Source of the DNA: Novosphingobium sp. PP1Y
GTDB lineage: Bacteria; Pseudomonadota; Alphaproteobacteria; Sphingomonadales; Sphingomonadaceae
NCBI RefSeq assembly: GCF_000253255.1
Contig: NC_015579.1
Coordinates: 144,552 to 176,551 of the forward strand
Length of the DNA: 32,000 nucleotides
Reading direction: 5' to 3'
The notes under the pieces are model-generated. The model ran no database searches. It was not told where the DNA came from and saw only the letters and a list, made by a program, of their open reading frames with translations. This document shows positions 10,351 through 23,946 of the stretch, in pieces. The translations under genes and the position numbers were made by a program. Within the stretch, counting starts at the first letter, position 1; each line of letters opens with the position of its first letter.

Positions 10351-11796
10351 ATGCAACGCTCGATTGCCTCTTATGCGATTGCCCTGTTCGGCGTGGCGGC
10401 CATTGCCTGGCTGACCGCAACCCTGCTGCCGCAGATCGGCATCGCTTCGGCCGCGCTGCTGTTTCTTCTGCCCGTTCTCTACGCGGCTGTGCGCGGCGGG
10501 TTGCTGCCCGGTCTGCTGGCCGCCTTTGCAGGTGCGATCGCCTACAACTTCTTCCTTCTTCCGCCGCGCTTCACGCTGCGGATCCACGGTTTCGACAACG
10601 TGATCAGCGTTCTCGTGTTCGTCGTGGTTGCCGTGGTGACGAGCCGGCTTGCGACATTGCTGAAAGCGCGCGAGGAGGAAGCGCTGGCCCGCGCCGCCTG
10701 CAGCGAGGAACTGGCCGCGCTTTCGGCTTTGCTGGCGAGCAAGGATGCCGCATCGGCGCTGGGCGAGGCCATCAGCTGGCTTGAACGTCGCCACGACCGC
10801 ATTCTGCTGATCGACGAGGATTTCTTGTCCGGCAATGATGCCGGTCTGTCCGCGCTCGACCTGGCCGCAGCATCATGGGCCCTCCATAACGCAGACATGA
10901 CCGGCCACGCCACGCAGGTCATGCCTGCTGCAGACTGGACTTTCATACCTCTTGGCCCCCGCCTCGGGACGGACCCGGATGTCCTTGCCGTTGCCCGTCC
11001 CGCGACCGGCGTCACGCGCGGCGCAAGCGAGCTGTCCCATCTCGGGCAGATTGCCGCGCTGCTCGGTCAGGCCCGGGACCGGGCCGCGCTTGAGCAGCAG
11101 ACGCGCGAGCGCGAACGCCTCGCCCAGGGTGACCGGTTAAGGCGCACCTTCCTCGCCTCGCTCGCACATGATTTTCACACGCCGCTGACGGTCATAACCG
11201 GACGACTTGTATCGCTCAGCCAAACCGTGCCCGATGCCGACGAAGCCCTTGAAGCGGCACGGCGATTGGAACGGATGCTGGAGGACCTGCTCGGCGCTGC
11301 GCGGATCGAAGACGGTTCGGTCGCACCGCGGATGGAAAGCGTCGATCTCGTCGATGTCGTCGGGGCCGCGGTGGAGGCCGTGCGCCTGCCGGGCCGGATC
11401 GCATTGGTGCGCGATATCCCGCCGGACCTCCCATTCGTCCATGCGGATCCGGTCCTGCTGCGCCATTGTCTGATCAACTTGCTGGATAATGCCGGGCGGC
11501 ACGCCTCCGGCACCGTTACGCTTTCGGCGCGATGTGCAGGTTCCCGCATGGCGCTGGCGGTCTGCGATGACGGTGGCGGGATCGCCGAAGCGGACCGCGC
11601 GCGGATCTTCGAGCGGTTCATCAGGCTTGAAGGCGATGACCGGGGGCAGGGCAGTGGGCTGGGCCTCTCGATCGTCAAGGGCTTCGCAGAGGCCATGGCG
11701 ATCCCCATAACCGTGTCGGACAGCGCGTCCGGCGGCGCCTGTTTCCGTCTCTCGCTGGCGCAGGTCAGTCCCCGGCAACCGGAGCCCGAAGAATGA
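10351..11796 (+). CDS. Sensor histidine kinase, KdpD C-terminal-type (membrane domain + HisKA + HATPase); lacks the KdpD N-terminal and Usp domains
   Basis: Start at ATG 10351, preceded by AGGA. Four TM helices. H-box FLASLAHDFHTPL. N, G1 and G2 boxes (LINLLDNAGRH, DDGGGI, GSGLGLSIV). The ORF extension back to 10249 overlaps kup and is rejected. Confidence 0.8.
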   Translation: MQRSIASYAIALFGVAAIAWLTATLLPQIGIASAALLFLLPVLYAAVRGGLLPGLLAAFAGAIAYNFFLLPPRFTLRIHGFDNVISVLVFVVVAVVTSRLATLLKAREEEALARAACSEELAALSALLASKDAASALGEAISWLERRHDRILLIDEDFLSGNDAGLSALDLAAASWALHNADMTGHATQVMPAADWTFIPLGPRLGTDPDVLAVARPATGVTRGASELSHLGQIAALLGQARDRAALEQQTRERERLAQGDRLRRTFLASLAHDFHTPLTVITGRLVSLSQTVPDADEALEAARRLERMLEDLLGAARIEDGSVAPRMESVDLVDVVGAAVEAVRLPGRIALVRDIPPDLPFVHADPVLLRHCLINLLDNAGRHASGTVTLSARCAGSRMALAVCDDGGGIAEADRARIFERFIRLEGDDRGQGSGLGLSIVKGFAEAMAIPITVSDSASGGACFRLSLAQVSPRQPEPEE

Positions 11797-12473
11797 GCAG
11801 TGTCCTGATCGTCGATGACGAAGCGGCAATCCGGCGCCTGCTCGAGGCAATCCTGTCCCGCGCCGGTCACGACGTCATCGCTGCCCCGAACGCGGCCAGC
11901 GCGCTGTCCGCCCTCGATCGCGGCAATGTCGATGTCATCCTGCTCGACCTGGGCCTGCCCGACCGGGACGGACTGGAGGTTATCGCCGCGGTTCGGCAAC
12001 GCTCCCCCATTCCGATCATCGTGCTGACGGCGCGCCACGAGACAGCTGAAAAGATCTCGGCCCTCGATCTCGGCGCGGACGATTATGTGACCAAGCCATT
12101 CGACAGTGACGAATTGCTGGCGCGCCTGCGCTCTGCCCTGCGCCGTTCCGGAACGGCGATGACCGGCGATGACGAGCACCTCGAATTCGGACCGGTCAGG
12201 ATGGACCTGGCGCGTCACGAAGTGCGATGCAATGACGCACCGGTTGCCCTGACACCGCGCGAGTACGCGGTCCTCAAGGCCCTGCTGCAGGCCTCGGGAC
12301 GCATCCTCACCCACGCCGCCATCCTCGAACAGGTATGGGGCAAGACGCACGTCGAAAGCGTCGACTACCTGCGCGTCGTCATCCGCGCCTTGCGGCTGAA
12401 ACTGGAAGCCGACCCCTCGGACCCTCGCCTGATCCGCAATGAACCGGGCATTGGCTACAGGCTGGTTGGATAG
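11793..12473 (+). CDS. kdpE: OmpR-family response regulator, KdpE-like
   Basis: 226 aa. Receiver domain (DD...D...K). C-terminal winged-helix tail LTHAAILEQVWG...YLRVVIRALRLKLE...IRNEPGIGYRL. ATGA overlap with the kinase stop. Confidence 0.85.
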   Translation: MSSVLIVDDEAAIRRLLEAILSRAGHDVIAAPNAASALSALDRGNVDVILLDLGLPDRDGLEVIAAVRQRSPIPIIVLTARHETAEKISALDLGADDYVTKPFDSDELLARLRSALRRSGTAMTGDDEHLEFGPVRMDLARHEVRCNDAPVALTPREYAVLKALLQASGRILTHAAILEQVWGKTHVESVDYLRVVIRALRLKLEADPSDPRLIRNEPGIGYRLVG

Positions 12474-16995: not shown

Positions 16996-17241
16996 ATGAT
17001 CATCGTATGGGATGAACCGAAACGGCAAGCGAACCTCGTCAAGCACGGGATCGACTTTGCCGATGTGGGGGAAGCGTTCTTCCTCTCCGCTCTGGTTATC
17101 CCCGCGAAGGACGGACGCTTTGCCGCCATCGGTGAGATGAACGGCACGATCACGGTGATTTTCGCTGTGCTGGGCACCGAAGGCGTCTCGATCATCTCTG
17201 CCCGCCCGGCCAGCATTATGGAACGGAGGCTCCTGCCATGA
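16996..17241 (+). CDS. brnT: BrnT-family (DUF497) toxin
   Basis: 81 aa. WDEPKRQANLVKHGIDF...IISARPA pattern typical of BrnT. 4-nt overlap with the downstream gene. Confidence 0.85.
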   Translation: MIIVWDEPKRQANLVKHGIDFADVGEAFFLSALVIPAKDGRFAAIGEMNGTITVIFAVLGTEGVSIISARPASIMERRLLP

Positions 17242-17525
17242 CCGACCCGAAACACGTCGCTCCCGGATACACCAAGGCCGATATGGATGAGGTCAGTAAT
17301 AACCCCGAATGGACAGCCGAGGACTTCGCCAGGGCAAAGCCTTTCGCTGAGGCCTTCCCGGACCTCGCAAAGACGATTCGCGCACGCGGTCCGCAGAAGG
17401 CCCCGAAAAAGGTCAGCACCACGCTGCGCCTTTCGCCCGAGGTGATCGAGCATTTCAAATCCGGCGGTCCCGGTTGGCAGTCACGGATCGATGCTGCCCT
17501 CAAGGATTGGGTGGCCGCGCACTGA
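17238..17525 (+). CDS. brnA: BrnA-family antitoxin
   Basis: 95 aa. C-terminal RGPQKAPKKVSTTLRLSPEVIEHFKSGGPGWQSRIDAALKDWV, typical of BrnA. Overlaps the brnT stop. Confidence 0.8.
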   Translation: MTDPKHVAPGYTKADMDEVSNNPEWTAEDFARAKPFAEAFPDLAKTIRARGPQKAPKKVSTTLRLSPEVIEHFKSGGPGWQSRIDAALKDWVAAH

Positions 17526-17897: not shown

Positions 17898-18752
17898 CTA
17901 AGCAGGTGGCCGCGGCAACAGATCGCGATACCCGCCCGAACAGAAGGACGCCTCGGCTGCCAACGCGCGCGACATGATCGCCTGCCAAAACCCTATGCGA
18001 TGTTGCAGTTCGATTCGGTCTGCGTTGCGGCGAAGGTACTCCTCGATCAGGGACTGATCGATAACGCCGCCATTCGGCGCGACCACCTCGGTTTCGAGCC
18101 GCAACGCCAATTCGGTAAGCAGTTCGCCCACCTCTGGCAACAGCGCCCGATTGAAATCGACCTTCTCGAGCTGGCGCGCCATGCGCTTGGCGAGCACGGA
18201 ATCAGGGATCGCGGCAGGCGAGAATGCGAAACTGACCGTGTAACTACCCACCGCGCGGGTCACGGTGGCCGTCAGGAACGAAACCGCCGGGATTTGATCT
18301 ATATACGGGTGAACGAACGCGCTTGCGATGGTTTTGCCCGTTGTCGCCGACTTGCGCTGGTTGCATGGGCCGCACATCGCAACGAGGTTGAGCGGGAAGA
18401 TCGCAAACTCGGGGAACGGCGTCTGTGGGAGGTGGTGATCGAGTTGGACGGGCCGTGCGCCGCCGCAGCTCGGGCAACGATTGCCCGCCACCGCCAGCAA
18501 CTCCGCCCGCAAACCAAACAGCGGCTTGCCCTCATACGTTTTCTTGTAAGCGGCGCGCAGCGCCGCACCGTATTTAACGCGAAACGGTTTGTTGGCGGTG
18601 ATGCGGCAACCGGCACCGCTCCCCAGCCAATAATCAAGGTAGAGCGTGCGCAGCGCAGTTTCCATGGGTTTGGGCACGGCCTTCCCGAGCCCAGCCTTTA
18701 GCACGTCGAACGGATCGCCGATTTTGTCGTGCGGATAGCGAAGTGTGTACAT
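17898..18752 (-). CDS. HNH endonuclease with N- and C-terminal extensions (PtuB-like, Septu-like partner)
   Basis: 284 aa. HNH core CPSCGG...LDHHLPQTPFP...NLVAMCGPCNQRK (nt 18351-18476). The ATG shares one base with the ATPase stop (TAATG). Confidence 0.8.
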   Translation of the reverse strand: MYTLRYPHDKIGDPFDVLKAGLGKAVPKPMETALRTLYLDYWLGSGAGCRITANKPFRVKYGAALRAAYKKTYEGKPLFGLRAELLAVAGNRCPSCGGARPVQLDHHLPQTPFPEFAIFPLNLVAMCGPCNQRKSATTGKTIASAFVHPYIDQIPAVSFLTATVTRAVGSYTVSFAFSPAAIPDSVLAKRMARQLEKVDFNRALLPEVGELLTELALRLETEVVAPNGGVIDQSLIEEYLRRNADRIELQHRIGFWQAIMSRALAAEASFCSGGYRDLLPRPPA

Positions 18753-20395: not shown

Positions 20396-20970
20396 CTTCT
20401 TTGTACCCCAAAAAAAGACGGCCTGCTTGGTCAGATCGTCCGCAGAGCGCTTAGTGAGCGATCCGTCGCCGCGATGCAACTCGCCGGGGACATATGATCG
20501 CAGACGATTCTGGCCATAATGGTGCGGCTGCCTGCCCCGAATTTCGGCGGCGGCACGAAGACATCACGCACGGCACCCCTTGTTCGACGCCGCGTCGCCA
20601 GACAACGACAGCTAAAAATGCGTCGCGTCATGCAATCTGTCGCTCAGGCATGATCGCGAGTCGATGGGGTGCGTAGCCAACCGCTTCTTCGGCTCCGCGA
20701 TCGAGCGTGGCGGATTCCCAAGGCCGCAATTCACCGGGCCGCCGAGTCCTCGGTGAAGTTGGCTAGGCAGAGCCGGGGATCGAGATGGCGGCAGCTTTTG
20801 GATATTGAGGCAAGCAGGCCGAACGACTGATTTGGGCGCATTCCCGGCGGGCAGGTCGCGCAAAAACCGCAGCGCTGAACGCGCACACTCTATTTGATCA
20901 GACGATCGATCGAGGACAGGTTGATGGGCACATATTTGCTTGAGGCGGCGGCGGGCAGCCCGGTCCAAGG

Positions 20971-22215
20971 TCAACGGAAACTGTGGTGAATCGCAGCAAC
21001 GACGGCACGTCCTTCGTTCAGCGTCGCTTCGATCATCGACTGAAGATGGCGCGTGGTTGCGCCGCGCGTGCCGACGTAACCTGATCGGACCAGCTCAACG
21101 AATGCCTCGCTGCGCAAATAGTGGCCATCGAGCTCGGTATGGTCGATGCGGAGGCCGCCTCGGCTCCCCCGCATACCGCCATTGCCAATCATATGGTCGA
21201 GATGGCCAAGACTGATAACGATGCCCGCTGCACTTGCGGCCGAGTGGCGTTTCATCATTTTCACGAAGAAAGCGCCGGGATGGAGGCGGTAAGGCCCTTC
21301 CGGCTCGAGATCGCAATCGAATTGCCGCATCCGATCAAGCTCATCTTGGAACTGCCAATTAATGCGGACCTGCCATCCCTCACCCAAATCGCGGTCGCGC
21401 TCAAGCATCTTGTATTGCACCATTACCAGCGCACCACGTCGCTCGTTGAGGTAGATTAGATCCACCCCGAGAAGCTCCTCAAGAGGTCGGCGATTGGCCG
21501 TATAGATCTCAAGCTCGCCGTCATGTTTCCTGAAACGCGCCCGTCCGGTCAGATCGCTGTCATCCATCGTCCAGCCCGGCAACCACCGGGCGTCATGTTC
21601 GATCGCCGCGTCCTCAAGCACGCGGATCGACGCGATCGCGCTTGGGCCGCGAACAGCCAACTCATAGGCTTCGCCATCGCCGCCAAAGGCGTTGACAGCG
21701 AGCTTGATCGCGTCGTGCTGCATGACGACCGCATTTTCGACACGACCGCGTCCGGCGATCCAGGCGAGGATGCGACGCAGGACGGGCGCGTTAGCTTCAT
21801 TGGCGGCTAGTGCCGCGATCATCGATTGGCCGAGTTGGCTGGATACTGCGGTGATCTCTTGGGAGGCAGCGCGCAATTGCGCGGCAGCATGTCTCAACGT
21901 CGGGGTTTCGACGTAACGCAAGAGCCGTGAAAGCGAGCCGGGTTCGATATCATCGACGAAATCGAACGCGACTCGGGTATCCAGCGATGAGATGGCCTGT
22001 CGCGAGCGAACGATCCCAATGCGGAGGTGCGACCTGCCGACCGCGATCAGCGCGAGCGAGCGCGTTTTGGCTGGCCTCGCCACCGAATGGCGAAAGTTGA
22101 GTGTGAACCGCGCACCGTGTCGCCTCGTACCTTCTAGCGCTTCCCATGTCTCCCGATCAACCCGGACTACGACAAGGCCAGCGGCCTGCAATTGGCGAAC
22201 TTCACGTTCTTCCAT
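20971..22215 (-). CDS. Hypothetical 414-aa protein with putative PD-(D/E)xK-like nuclease core
   Basis: Uninterrupted ORF with GGGGAAG before the ATG. Segment GELEIYTANRRPLEELLGVDLIYLNERRGALVMVQYK (nt about 21409-21520) fits E...D-x14-QxK in a beta-hairpin context. No other motif recognised. Confidence 0.7.
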   Translation of the reverse strand: MEEREVRQLQAAGLVVVRVDRETWEALEGTRRHGARFTLNFRHSVARPAKTRSLALIAVGRSHLRIGIVRSRQAISSLDTRVAFDFVDDIEPGSLSRLLRYVETPTLRHAAAQLRAASQEITAVSSQLGQSMIAALAANEANAPVLRRILAWIAGRGRVENAVVMQHDAIKLAVNAFGGDGEAYELAVRGPSAIASIRVLEDAAIEHDARWLPGWTMDDSDLTGRARFRKHDGELEIYTANRRPLEELLGVDLIYLNERRGALVMVQYKMLERDRDLGEGWQVRINWQFQDELDRMRQFDCDLEPEGPYRLHPGAFFVKMMKRHSAASAAGIVISLGHLDHMIGNGGMRGSRGGLRIDHTELDGHYLRSEAFVELVRSGYVGTRGATTRHLQSMIEATLNEGRAVVAAIHHSFR

Positions 22216-22440: not shown

Positions 22441-22525
22441 CCGGCAGCTGTCAAACTTGCAAGGGACCGGTTTCAGTGCAAGCCGTCATTCCGGCGCCCA
22501 TACCGGAATGGCTTGAGTTGGTCGG
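22441..22525. repeat. Partial diverged copy of the right arm of the MITE-like element at 26735-26990
   Basis: Hand alignment of 22441-22525 with 26907-26992, roughly two-thirds identical. It shares CCGGCA(A/G)CTGTCAA at the start and TGAGTTGGTCGGC at the end. It contains the hairpin CATTCCGG-N8-CCGGAATG. Confidence 0.45.
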
Positions 22526-22590
22526 CAGGAGAAACGCTAAGTGTGGTGAGAATCTCTGCGGATTGGCCGCCAGCACGGACCTTTTTACGG

Positions 22591-22893
22591 CTAACCGTCG
22601 TAATTCGATGATGTCCAATCTTCCCGACCATGCCGGACGCGTAGAATGATGACCTCGCCCTCATTTCCTACATCATAAATCACCAGGTGGGCCTTGTAGG
22701 GATGCACGCGAACTGGCGGCGAGATTTCCTCTCGCAAGCGCGCAGCATGGGGATAGTCTGCGAGAAACGCGAAAATCGCACTCAGCCCTTCGTGATAAGC
22801 GTCAGCCTGCGGCAAGCCAAACTGCTCGATGCCTTCCAGAAAAATGGCTGTCAGATCGTCGGCTGCGGCGCGTGTTAAGTGAAAACGTGGCAC
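22591..22893 (-). CDS. parE: RelE/ParE-family toxin
   Basis: 100 aa. Typical ParE layout (AAADDLTAIF...YPHAARLREEI...VHPYKAHLVIYDV...VIILRVRHGRED). Starts 2 nt after the antitoxin stop. Confidence 0.85.
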   Translation of the reverse strand: MPRFHLTRAAADDLTAIFLEGIEQFGLPQADAYHEGLSAIFAFLADYPHAARLREEISPPVRVHPYKAHLVIYDVGNEGEVIILRVRHGREDWTSSNYDG

Positions 22894-22895
22894 AG

Positions 22896-23141
22896 TCAGG
22901 CTTGCAGGCCTGCCTGGCTGATCGCTCGCGCCCGGATATCCGCCATCGTCTCATCGCTCAGACCGCCAGCTCGGGCGTCGTCGACAAGGCGCTGCATGGC
23001 GGCAATCTTGTCGGCGCGTTCCTGGTCACGGCGGATAAGATCGCGCACATAGTCGCTGGCATTGCTATACCGACCAGTATCAGCTTGCGCTTCCACCCAT
23101 TGCTTCATCGGATCGGGCAGTGAGATGTTCATCGTAGCCAT
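22896..23141 (-). CDS. parD: ParD-family RHH antitoxin
   Basis: Start ATG 23141, preceded by GGAGG. MATMNISLPDPMKQWVE...SDYVRDLIRRDQ. The ORF extension to 23168 is rejected. Confidence 0.85.
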   Translation of the reverse strand: MATMNISLPDPMKQWVEAQADTGRYSNASDYVRDLIRRDQERADKIAAMQRLVDDARAGGLSDETMADIRARAISQAGLQA

Positions 23142-23313
23142 GGCAACCTCCATGCCCTGAAATAGCAAAGATTGGCAAAGCTTGTCAATTGCTGCTCAGC
23201 CATGACCTACCCCCACGAATAGGGACAATTATGCAGCCGACGCCTCGCAGCACCTCCCCCTGCGGCTGCCAGACGTTCTTCCGTTGGCCAATTCTGGCTA
23301 TCGGAGAATGAAC

Positions 23314-23946
23314 ATGGAAATGCCTGAAACCCAACCTACATCCGCCAAGCGTCAGGTCTGGAACGCAGGTCGCGCTGTCGGCGCGAAGCGGGCGCTGAAG
23401 CCGAAGCAAATTTGGGAGATCCGCTTTTATCTCAATCAGCGTCGTCGCCTTCGAGACCGGGCTCTGTTCGACCTGGCGATCGACAGCAAATTGCGTGGTT
23501 GTGATCTCGTGCAAATGAAAATCGGCGACATTGTCAGCGGCGGGCAGATCCGAACACGCGCCATCGTAATGCAGCAGAAAACCGGCCGCCCTGTGCAGTT
23601 TGAGTTGCTTCCTGATGCCCGCGCCAGTCTGCTGGTTTGGCTTGAACGCCGTGGCGGCACGGTGGACGATTATGTCTTTCCAAGTCGGGTCGATCGCAAC
23701 GGCCATCTCAGCACCCGCCAATATGCCCGGCTTGTCGATGAATGGGTGACCGGTGTGGGCCTGATGCGAAGCGAATATGGCACCCACTCGCTGCGCCGGA
23801 CGAAGGCGTCGATCATCTACCGGGCAACCGGCAACTTGCGCGCCGTCCAGATCCTGCTCGGTCATAGCAAGATCGAAAATACGGTGCGGTATCTTGGGAT
23901 CGACGTGGAAGACGCGCTTGCCCTCGCCGAGAATACCGAAATTTGA
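23314..23946 (+). CDS. Short tyrosine recombinase/integrase (catalytic domain only, about 210 aa)
   Basis: Catalytic residues in order: R (RDRALFDLAIDSKLRGCDL), HxxR (GTHSLRRTKAS), H...Y (LLGHSKIENTVRYL). GGAGA lies 7 nt before ATG 23314. No SAM-like N-terminal DNA-binding domain. Confidence 0.85.
   Translation: MEMPETQPTSAKRQVWNAGRAVGAKRALKPKQIWEIRFYLNQRRRLRDRALFDLAIDSKLRGCDLVQMKIGDIVSGGQIRTRAIVMQQKTGRPVQFELLPDARASLLVWLERRGGTVDDYVFPSRVDRNGHLSTRQYARLVDEWVTGVGLMRSEYGTHSLRRTKASIIYRATGNLRAVQILLGHSKIENTVRYLGIDVEDALALAENTEI

Follow-up and report, generated by a model that had tools for sequence, protein, structure and literature searches.

A candidate single-gene immune nuclease of an undescribed family in Novosphingobium sp. 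PP1Y

The gene, its relatives and its predicted domains

The stretch of DNA analysed here (the window) comprises 32,000 nt of Novosphingobium sp. PP1Y (contig NC_015579.1, positions 144,552 to 176,551). The gene under study, hereafter the target, lies in a small islet of defence and toxin-antitoxin genes, and its coordinates are given in Table 1 with those of its domains and neighbours. The original prediction, made without database searches, had described a 414-aa open reading frame (ORF) at 20971–22215, on the same strand as an ATPase-HNH gene pair and upstream of it, between that pair and a parDE module. All of this is borne out by the positions of the genes now identified as PtuA and PtuB and of ParE and ParD (22591–23168, upstream of the target); the strand is minus. 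The ORF begins with ATG, with a purine-rich GGGGAAG closely upstream, and the protein is 100% identical to WP_013831442.1, which is annotated as a ‘hypothetical protein’ and is encoded on a 192,103-bp contig of Novosphingobium sp. PP1Y. The peptide ELEIY...GVDLIYLNERRGALVMVQYK was confirmed in the protein, D252 to Q267-Y-K269 being encoded at 21409–21462.

A word-indexed search returned at least 622 homologues at E≤1e-3, nearly all full-length (~414–450 aa) and without a Pfam domain or a name. An exhaustive profile search of 1.84 billion representatives gave 1,455 clusters at E≤1e-3, of which 343 were at E≤1e-30 (clustering was at 50% identity). The family is spread over Proteobacteria, Desulfobacterota, Chloroflexota, Cyanobacteriota, Bacillota (Peptococcaceae), Actinomycetota and others. 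When the target is compared with four relatives, nucleotide changes fall mostly at the third codon position (for example, 32/13/142). The number of homologues, the third-position substitutions and the invariance of D252, Q267 and K269 (see below) place this ORF far beyond chance. The gene is real, conserved and under purifying selection.

The target protein has no significant match in Pfam, NCBIfam, PADLOC or PHROGs, to a housekeeping family or any other. We aligned 105 diverse relatives, with identities to the window protein down to ~25%. When these were scanned singly, none matched DUF4263/SduA, DUF1837, NERD or Cap4 at E≤0.1, and there were only lone noise-level matches to Card1_endonuc, Mrr_cat_2, PUA_NSUN2 and PD_DExK. 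A comparison of the target (phmmer) and of the 105-sequence profile with all sequences in the PDB gave nothing relevant, and no match to a modification-dependent restriction endonuclease (MDRE). Every annotation of the plasmid homologues reads ‘hypothetical protein’. The comparison with DUF4263, DUF1837 and Cap4 suggested by the original prediction thus led to no known family, either for the window protein or for the 105 relatives, and the suggestion that the unannotated gene could represent a new family is supported by the absence of matches in Pfam, PADLOC and NCBIfam. Identity with the END nucleases was also considered and rejected, because those enzymes combine PLD with an inactive EndoIII.

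An AlphaFold model was made from the 105-sequence alignment and has a mean predicted local distance difference test score (pLDDT) of 82.9; in a version from 34 sequences the nuclease half scored 50–70. Alignments and model were built from 20971–22212, without the initiator Met, and model residue numbers are protein numbers minus 1. The model shows an N-terminal domain, a poorly modelled linker and a C-terminal nuclease domain. The first ~230 aa had been thought to hold no motif that could be placed. Instead, residues 1–156 form a domain modelled at pLDDT >95, and the linker that follows carries a conserved helix.

The secondary structure of the nuclease half, as assigned by DSSP, is alpha(201–210), beta, beta, beta(233–239), a short helix, beta(253–257), beta(262–273), alpha(287–299) and beta(316–322), which is the alpha-beta-beta-beta-alpha-beta core of PD-(D/E)xK enzymes. 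In the model E201 is on helix 201–210, and D252, Q267 and K269 lie with strands 253–257 and 262–273. Ten residues are invariant across the 105 sequences (E201, N241, E246, G250, D252, Q267, K269, R310, G379 and G382). Foldseek searches of the PDB with the nuclease half returned the Holliday-junction resolvase Hjc (probability 0.95, TMt 0.57), PvuII and DrmA, and the BFVD database returned small phage PD-(D/E)xK nucleases (probability 0.99–1.0, TMt 0.5–0.6), although E-values for these core matches were only 3.6e-3 to 0.1. The best PDB match of the whole model was VcaM4I, an EVE-HNH Type IV enzyme (E 4.3e-3, probability 0.80). The C-terminal half is thus predicted to be a PD-(D/E)xK restriction-endonuclease fold with a complete and invariant active-site set (E201 from the first helix, D252 opening the second core strand and Q267-x-K269 within the third).

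The PD-(D/E)xK-like core proposed at the outset is supported by this model, by Foldseek and by the invariant motif residues; a fold lacking the core, which would have spoken against the proposal, was not what structure prediction gave. The motif had been written as E...D-x14-QxK. The D252-x14-Q267-x-K269 part is correct and invariant, but the E of ELEIY is not conserved and the invariant acids are E201 and E246. The presence of Q in place of the acidic residue had been seen as a concern. MspJI, with the motif D-X20-Q-A-K, is active and its Gln coordinates Mg2+, and a Gln in motif III is therefore compatible with catalysis.

The N-terminal barrel gave weak Foldseek matches only (E 4e-3 to 0.9), to VcaM4I, the Lon N-domain, the Lon-like domain of cereblon, the PUA domain of RsmE and TTHA0113, and in BFVD to a phage ASCH-domain protein (probability 0.89). 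A match to the Pfam PUA clan was found in none of the 105 members except one, at E 0.017. These fold matches suggest that the barrel is probably a PUA-superfamily-like reader or sensor. Mean pairwise identity is 22% in the N-domain versus 44% in the nuclease, and the N-domain is evolving about twice as fast, which fits a sensor under arms-race pressure. In the remote plasmid homologues BLAST aligns the nuclease alone; the N-domain is still colinear and weakly detectable.

The consensus of the linker helix is ENAxxxQxDAxxLAxxAFG (~aa 162–178, window 21682–21732), in which A169, A173 and F177 are nearly invariant. The nuclease domain has a conserved C-terminal extension that includes R310, K319, R323, H338, RSGYIGT (377–383) and an AVVAAIQ tail. 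This last segment (~aa 403–409, window 20989–21009) is conserved in the family but has a pLDDT below 50 in the monomer model. Conservation of a linker helix and a tail that are both modelled at low pLDDT is a pattern typical of oligomer or partner interfaces, and the linker helix may serve as an interface for oligomerization or for autoinhibition.

Table 1. Positions in the window of the target gene, its domains and motif codons, and the neighbouring genes
Feature	Position	Strand	Evidence or remark
Target gene, stop codon at 20971–20973	20971–22215	minus	ORF list and translation; 100% database match; purifying selection
N-terminal domain, aa 1–156, five-strand beta-barrel then helical subdomain	21748–22215	minus	model pLDDT >95; weak Foldseek matches
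Linker, aa 157–200, with conserved helix	21616–21747	minus	pLDDT <50 at model residues 157–198
C-terminal PD-(D/E)xK nuclease domain (predicted), aa 201–414	20974–21615	minus	DSSP; Foldseek
E201 codon, motif I acid, at start of helix EDAAIEHD (21583–21615)	21613–21615	minus	invariant in 105
D252 codon, motif II, start of second core strand, GVDLIY	21460–21462	minus	invariant in 105
Q267-Y268-K269 codons, motif III, QxK variant of (D/E)xK	21409–21417	minus	Q and K invariant, Y nearly so
Spacer between target and PtuA, 491 nt	20480–20970	minus	no conserved ORF
PtuA, ABC-type ATPase, 575 aa	18752–20479	minus	PADLOC PDC-M01A 1.8e-87, PtuA 2.1e-63
PtuB, HNH, 284 aa	17898–18752	minus	PADLOC PDC-M01B 1.1e-37
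ParE	22591–22893	minus	Pfam ParE_toxin 2e-17
ParD	22896–23168	minus	Pfam ParD_antitoxin 3e-4
BrnT toxin	16996–17241	plus	Pfam 6.6e-16
BrnA antitoxin	17238–17525	plus	Pfam 7.6e-24

Mobility and genomic contexts of the family

We compared 80 homologous loci (numbered with the prefix L) from species-representative genomes of many phyla; genes were called crudely as longest ORFs, and intergenic distances are approximate. When the window proteins were used in tblastn, relatives of PtuA, PtuB, ParD and ParE were found in 0/80 of these loci. Relatives at 78–88% identity lie beside metabolic genes, on a conjugative element next to a HEPN gene, or within an integrase-bounded element, and similarity to the closest relatives at the DNA level stops within ~30 nt of the target ORF. 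The window's own clade (L001–L019) and the closest relatives are mostly solitary, and neither the window copy nor those relatives have an adjacent methyltransferase. Since the neighbourhoods of close relatives are unrelated, DNA homology ends at the ORF and the corresponding slot of plasmid pLA3 is filled differently (see below), the unit of mobility is the single gene. It travels as a single-gene cassette and inserts into defence islands.

Members of the family are found on plasmids and integrative elements. They are absent from 50,697 phage records (0/50,697), and there are two in 2.9 million IMG/VR contigs. One relative in Mesorhizobium carmichaelinearum (L002, ~10808–12174), 86–88% identical at the DNA level, is split by an insertion of ~1.36 kb, presumably an insertion sequence (IS), and is a pseudogene.

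Homologues are concentrated in defence and mobile contexts, in agreement with what the original prediction expected of a defence gene. The more distant ones are often operonic: there is a same-strand upstream gene within 100 nt in 52/74 loci and within 5 nt in 37/74. In the following gene orders [T] is the target homologue. About 9–11 loci have the bacteriophage exclusion (BREX) arrangement BrxB-BrxC-PglX-[T]-(PglZ-position protein)-BrxL, with overlapping stop and start codons; ~6 resemble Type III restriction-modification (R-M) loci (Res-Mod-[T]-UvrD helicase); and four are Gabija-like (OLD-family ATPase-UvrD-[T]). Further contexts are UvrD-[T]-AbiV and, in Type I R-M loci, HsdM/HsdS-[T]. AbiV, Abi_C, AbiJ, AbiEii and CHAT genes are among the defence neighbours. 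A UvrD-type helicase accounts for ~14/77 of the operonic neighbours scanned; these helicases belong to four clusters and are directly upstream in eight loci and downstream in six, in several clades and in both orders. The contexts are partly clade-specific.

Several neighbours in these loci are of interest in their own right. In Type III-like R-M loci the gene directly after the homologue (gap −4 to +36 nt) encodes an unusual toxin-helicase fusion of 690 aa, in which a UvrD-type helicase carries a HigB/RelE-like toxin domain at its N-terminus (L025, 8788–10857, with equivalents in L026, L030, L035, L042 and L062). In Thiobacillus-type loci a 431-aa protein without a Pfam match (cluster c6; L034, 8660–9955, with equivalents in L033, L037, L040, L044 and L070) always ends 3 nt before the start of the homologue, with a gene for an HTH-ImmA/IrrE protease or an Abi_C gene nearby. 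This pair may be a two-gene variant of the system. A hidden paralogue of either target domain was looked for in the neighbouring proteins, including c6, and none was found. The protein in the PglZ position of the BREX loci that carry a homologue (cluster c2, 786–834 aa; L064, 11356–13716, and equivalents) has no Pfam match at E≤1e-3 and may be a divergent PglZ. Finally, on the conjugative plasmid pAMI8 of Paracoccus aminophilus (L086, 6735–8390) the genes before a remote homologue code for an ATP-binding protein and an S8 peptidase, and the gene after it, which overlaps it by 4 nt, codes for a DUF6119 family protein. Here, too, the neighbourhood may be of a defence type.

Comparison with known systems and interpretation

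A close parallel in layout is Shedu. In both cases a single gene of ~400 aa codes for an N-terminal sensor (a probable one in the target), a linker and a C-terminal PD-(D/E)xK nuclease, the nuclease is conserved and the N-terminus divergent, and the genes occur in defence islands and are embedded in R-M and BREX loci. The motif residues of the target (E201/D252/Q267-x-K269) are at nearly the same positions as those of Bacillus cereus SduA (E204/D249/E264-x-K266), and the D-x14-(E/Q) spacing is identical. In SduA the N-domain and linker autoinhibit the nuclease, and KELShedu works by abortive infection. Shedu genes have been counted in R-M loci (602) and BREX loci (87), and a PUA-fold class (‘Type 1E’) has been proposed to be Type IV-like. 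The original prediction had likened the variable N-terminus and C-terminal nuclease of the target to Shedu-type proteins. The layout agrees; the N-terminus, however, is a single homologous and fast-evolving domain throughout the family, in contrast with the swapped repertoire of Shedu N-domains. In addition, 0/105 family members match PF14082 or the PADLOC SduA models at E≤0.1, the solved Shedu structures and EndoMS fall outside the top 50 Foldseek PDB matches of the model, motif III has Gln rather than Glu, and the target nuclease has its own conserved C-terminal extension (R310, RSGYIGT and AVVAAIQ). The Shedu-like layout is a resemblance and not demonstrated homology.

Among the Type IV MDREs, MspJI, AspBHI and LpnPI (SRA-like and PD-QxK) and VcaM4I (EVE-HNH) have a PUA-superfamily domain at the N-terminus, where the target has its probably PUA-like barrel, and a nuclease at the C-terminus, and MspJI has the same Gln variant. 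These enzymes require no methyltransferase, and a role complementary to methylation-based systems is plausible in both cases. In contrast, neither phmmer nor the profile search of the PDB found any similarity in sequence between the target and a solved MDRE, the PUA assignment of its N-domain is weak (E 4e-3 to 0.9), and in comparison with MspJI it has a long linker with a conserved helix and a larger nuclease domain.

Extra nuclease genes in BREX loci have been reported to give complementary protection, and PD-(D/E)xK backup effectors have been documented there. BrxU/GmrSD are also encoded within BREX operons, just as target homologues lie between pglX and the gene in the pglZ position. However, BrxU/GmrSD combine DUF262 (ParB-like) with HNH and have an unrelated fold, and the target family also occurs in Type III, Type I R-M and Gabija-like loci and in solitary contexts. 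Hachiman HamA (DUF1837) shares a PD-(D/E)xK nuclease, and a helicase directly adjoins the gene in about one-fifth of target-family loci. None of the 105 members matches DUF1837, the helicases are of the superfamily 1 (SF1) UvrD type and not the SF2 HamB type, and most target-family loci, including the window, lack a helicase.

Taken together, the data suggest that the target is an autonomous single-polypeptide immune nuclease of a previously undescribed family, to which we assign a probability of roughly 0.6. From the contexts and architecture we infer a function in defence. The best reading is that the protein would work like Shedu or a PUA-type Type IV enzyme, yet is not a detectable member of DUF4263 or of the MspJI family. 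The N-terminal PUA-like barrel would recognize some feature of invading DNA, the PUA superfamily fold being the one used by the EVE, SRA, ASCH and YTH readers. That feature would most probably be a non-host base modification or, alternatively, an unusual DNA structure or a DNA end. Base modification is favoured because the weak fold matches are all to the PUA superfamily and because the gene sits beside methyltransferase-based systems that hypermodified phages evade. Recognition would position or de-repress a Mg2+-dependent nuclease, probably an oligomer held together by the conserved linker helix and the C-terminal tail, which would then cleave the foreign DNA. In this way the target could provide a second line of defence when phages evade BREX, Type I and Type III R-M, or Gabija. 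BrxU/GmrSD and Shedu are thought to provide such a second line.

Several observations weigh against this interpretation. No Foldseek match is below E 1e-3, and the fold calls depend on concordant weak matches and on motif logic, the PUA-like call especially. In the N-domain, conservation of the aromatic residues W24, F37, F41 and F84 is limited to the closer subfamily. The monomer model places neither the linker nor the C-terminal tail. Some close relatives lie amid metabolic genes with no recognizable defence neighbour (L082). Additionally, the translational coupling to a methyltransferase or UvrD helicase in several clades could mean that the protein depends on a partner.

Such dependence would make the target a plug-in effector or accessory subunit of a PglX, Mod or HsdM methyltransferase or of a UvrD-type helicase, for example a cleaving arm recruited by BREX or Type III complexes, or half of a Hachiman- or Gabija-style nuclease-helicase pair. 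We consider this unlikely. Half of the loci (the 37/74 above) do have a start codon that runs into the preceding gene or directly adjoins it, the BREX-embedded clade is always found between pglX and the gene in the pglZ position, and UvrD helicases of four clusters adjoin the gene on either side in several clades. However, the partners differ completely between clades with no shared partner family, the window's own clade and closest relatives are mostly solitary, there is no methyltransferase or helicase near the window copy, and the same embedding is shown by Shedu and BrxU, which are autonomous. The original prediction had raised the alternative that the target is a third component of the ATPase-HNH system, and the adjacent Septu-like PtuA/PtuB would then be co-expressed with it, the target acting as a sensor or second nuclease. 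It is on the same strand, directly upstream of PtuA, and no terminator-like site was detected between them. Against this, PtuA/PtuB relatives occur in 0/80 homologous loci, so that the homologues travel without them; relatives at 78–90% identity have other neighbours, the 491-nt spacer is not conserved and DNA homology with relatives ends at the target ORF. A third Septu component is extremely unlikely.

The signal sensed and the DNA cleaved could also differ from those proposed above. The target may be an abortive-infection or toxin-type DNase without specificity, which is held by its N-domain and linker and freed by a cue other than modification (DNA ends, nucleotide depletion or a phage protein), and which then kills or arrests the cell. 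The parallel with B. cereus Shedu in autoinhibition, motif positions and domain order is in keeping with this, as are the abortive action of KELShedu and the frequency of Abi and toxin-antitoxin genes among the neighbours. A PUA-like N-domain and embedding beside methyltransferases are a better fit to a reader of DNA marks, and we think the toxin-type alternative rather improbable, although it overlaps with the autonomous immune nuclease and differs only in signal and substrate. A function outside defence would be that of a mobile-element or DNA-repair nuclease (resolvase-like or recombination-related), or of a dead nuclease fold acting as a nucleic-acid sensor or regulator. Hjc is among the best matches of the nuclease domain, the gene is carried by plasmids and integrative elements, and Q replaces the canonical acidic residue. 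However, none of the active-site residues varies in the 105 sequences, MspJI is active with the QxK variant, the gene is patchily distributed and has no conserved linkage to genes for replication, partition or integration, and repeated insertion within BREX, R-M and Gabija operons would otherwise be hard to explain. We therefore regard a non-defence role as very unlikely.

A broader proposal is that the family represents a widespread kind of plug-in immune nuclease that still has no name and is separate from Shedu, MspJI and GmrSD. Methylation- and helicase-based systems would have captured it repeatedly, in BREX between pglX and the gene in the pglZ position, in Type III loci behind Mod, behind a GajB-like UvrD, and in operonic fusion with a HigB-UvrD helicase. 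In such settings its members may be functionally integrated as a DNA-cleaving or modified-DNA-sensing arm that the host system would otherwise lack, with a fast-evolving PUA-like barrel that reads a feature of phage DNA beyond those of the known readers. We put this forward tentatively, as unlikely.

The concept of a single-gene sensor-nuclease immune protein is already known; the family itself is new and unnamed. If confirmed, it would be a sizeable addition to the catalogue of single-gene anti-phage nucleases, and one that Pfam, PADLOC and NCBIfam do not detect. The programs now used to find defence systems leave its genes unlabelled, including the copies within BREX, R-M and Gabija operons, and such embedded copies could mislead genetic studies that take those systems apart. 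Should the N-domain read modified DNA, the family could yield tools that detect or map hypermodified phage DNA; MspJI, AbaSI and the END nucleases have already become such tools.

Neighbouring genes in the window

The target is an independent unit in a small islet with the order BrnTA, Septu PtuAB, target, ParDE and a recombinase remnant. Family scans of the window found no methyltransferase or helicase near the target. The stop and start codons of PtuA and PtuB share position 18752, and the best match of the pair is the PADLOC candidate system PDC-M01 rather than the canonical PtuA model. The true start of PtuA may lie downstream of the called TTG, since an ATG 28 codons further on opens ‘MSALRLF’.

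Scans of the flanks, including the spacer between the target and PtuA, gave no Rfam family and no consensus promoter or terminator. A 120-aa ORF at 20612–20974 was considered as a gene and rejected, as it has no family match and no tblastn match in 85 loci.

ParE, ParD and a 220-aa tyrosine-recombinase remnant (window 22518–23500) are 99% identical to a segment of plasmid pLA3 of Novosphingobium pentaromativorans (L081). This identity takes in the ParDE-recombinase segment and not the target. Beyond ParE, pLA3 has a metallophosphoesterase gene, a 153-aa ORF and an IS3 transposase in place of the target and Septu, and the slot beside ParDE looks like a variable cargo hotspot. A linkage between the target and ParDE was rejected, because ParDE is found with the target in 0/80 loci and pLA3 shares the ParDE segment without it.

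Two toxin-antitoxin modules bracket the defence islet, with BrnTA to its left and ParDE to its right. The rest of the window is ordinary cargo and includes a TonB receptor, Kup, a two-component system, Tad pilins, a sulfatase and chaperone-usher genes.

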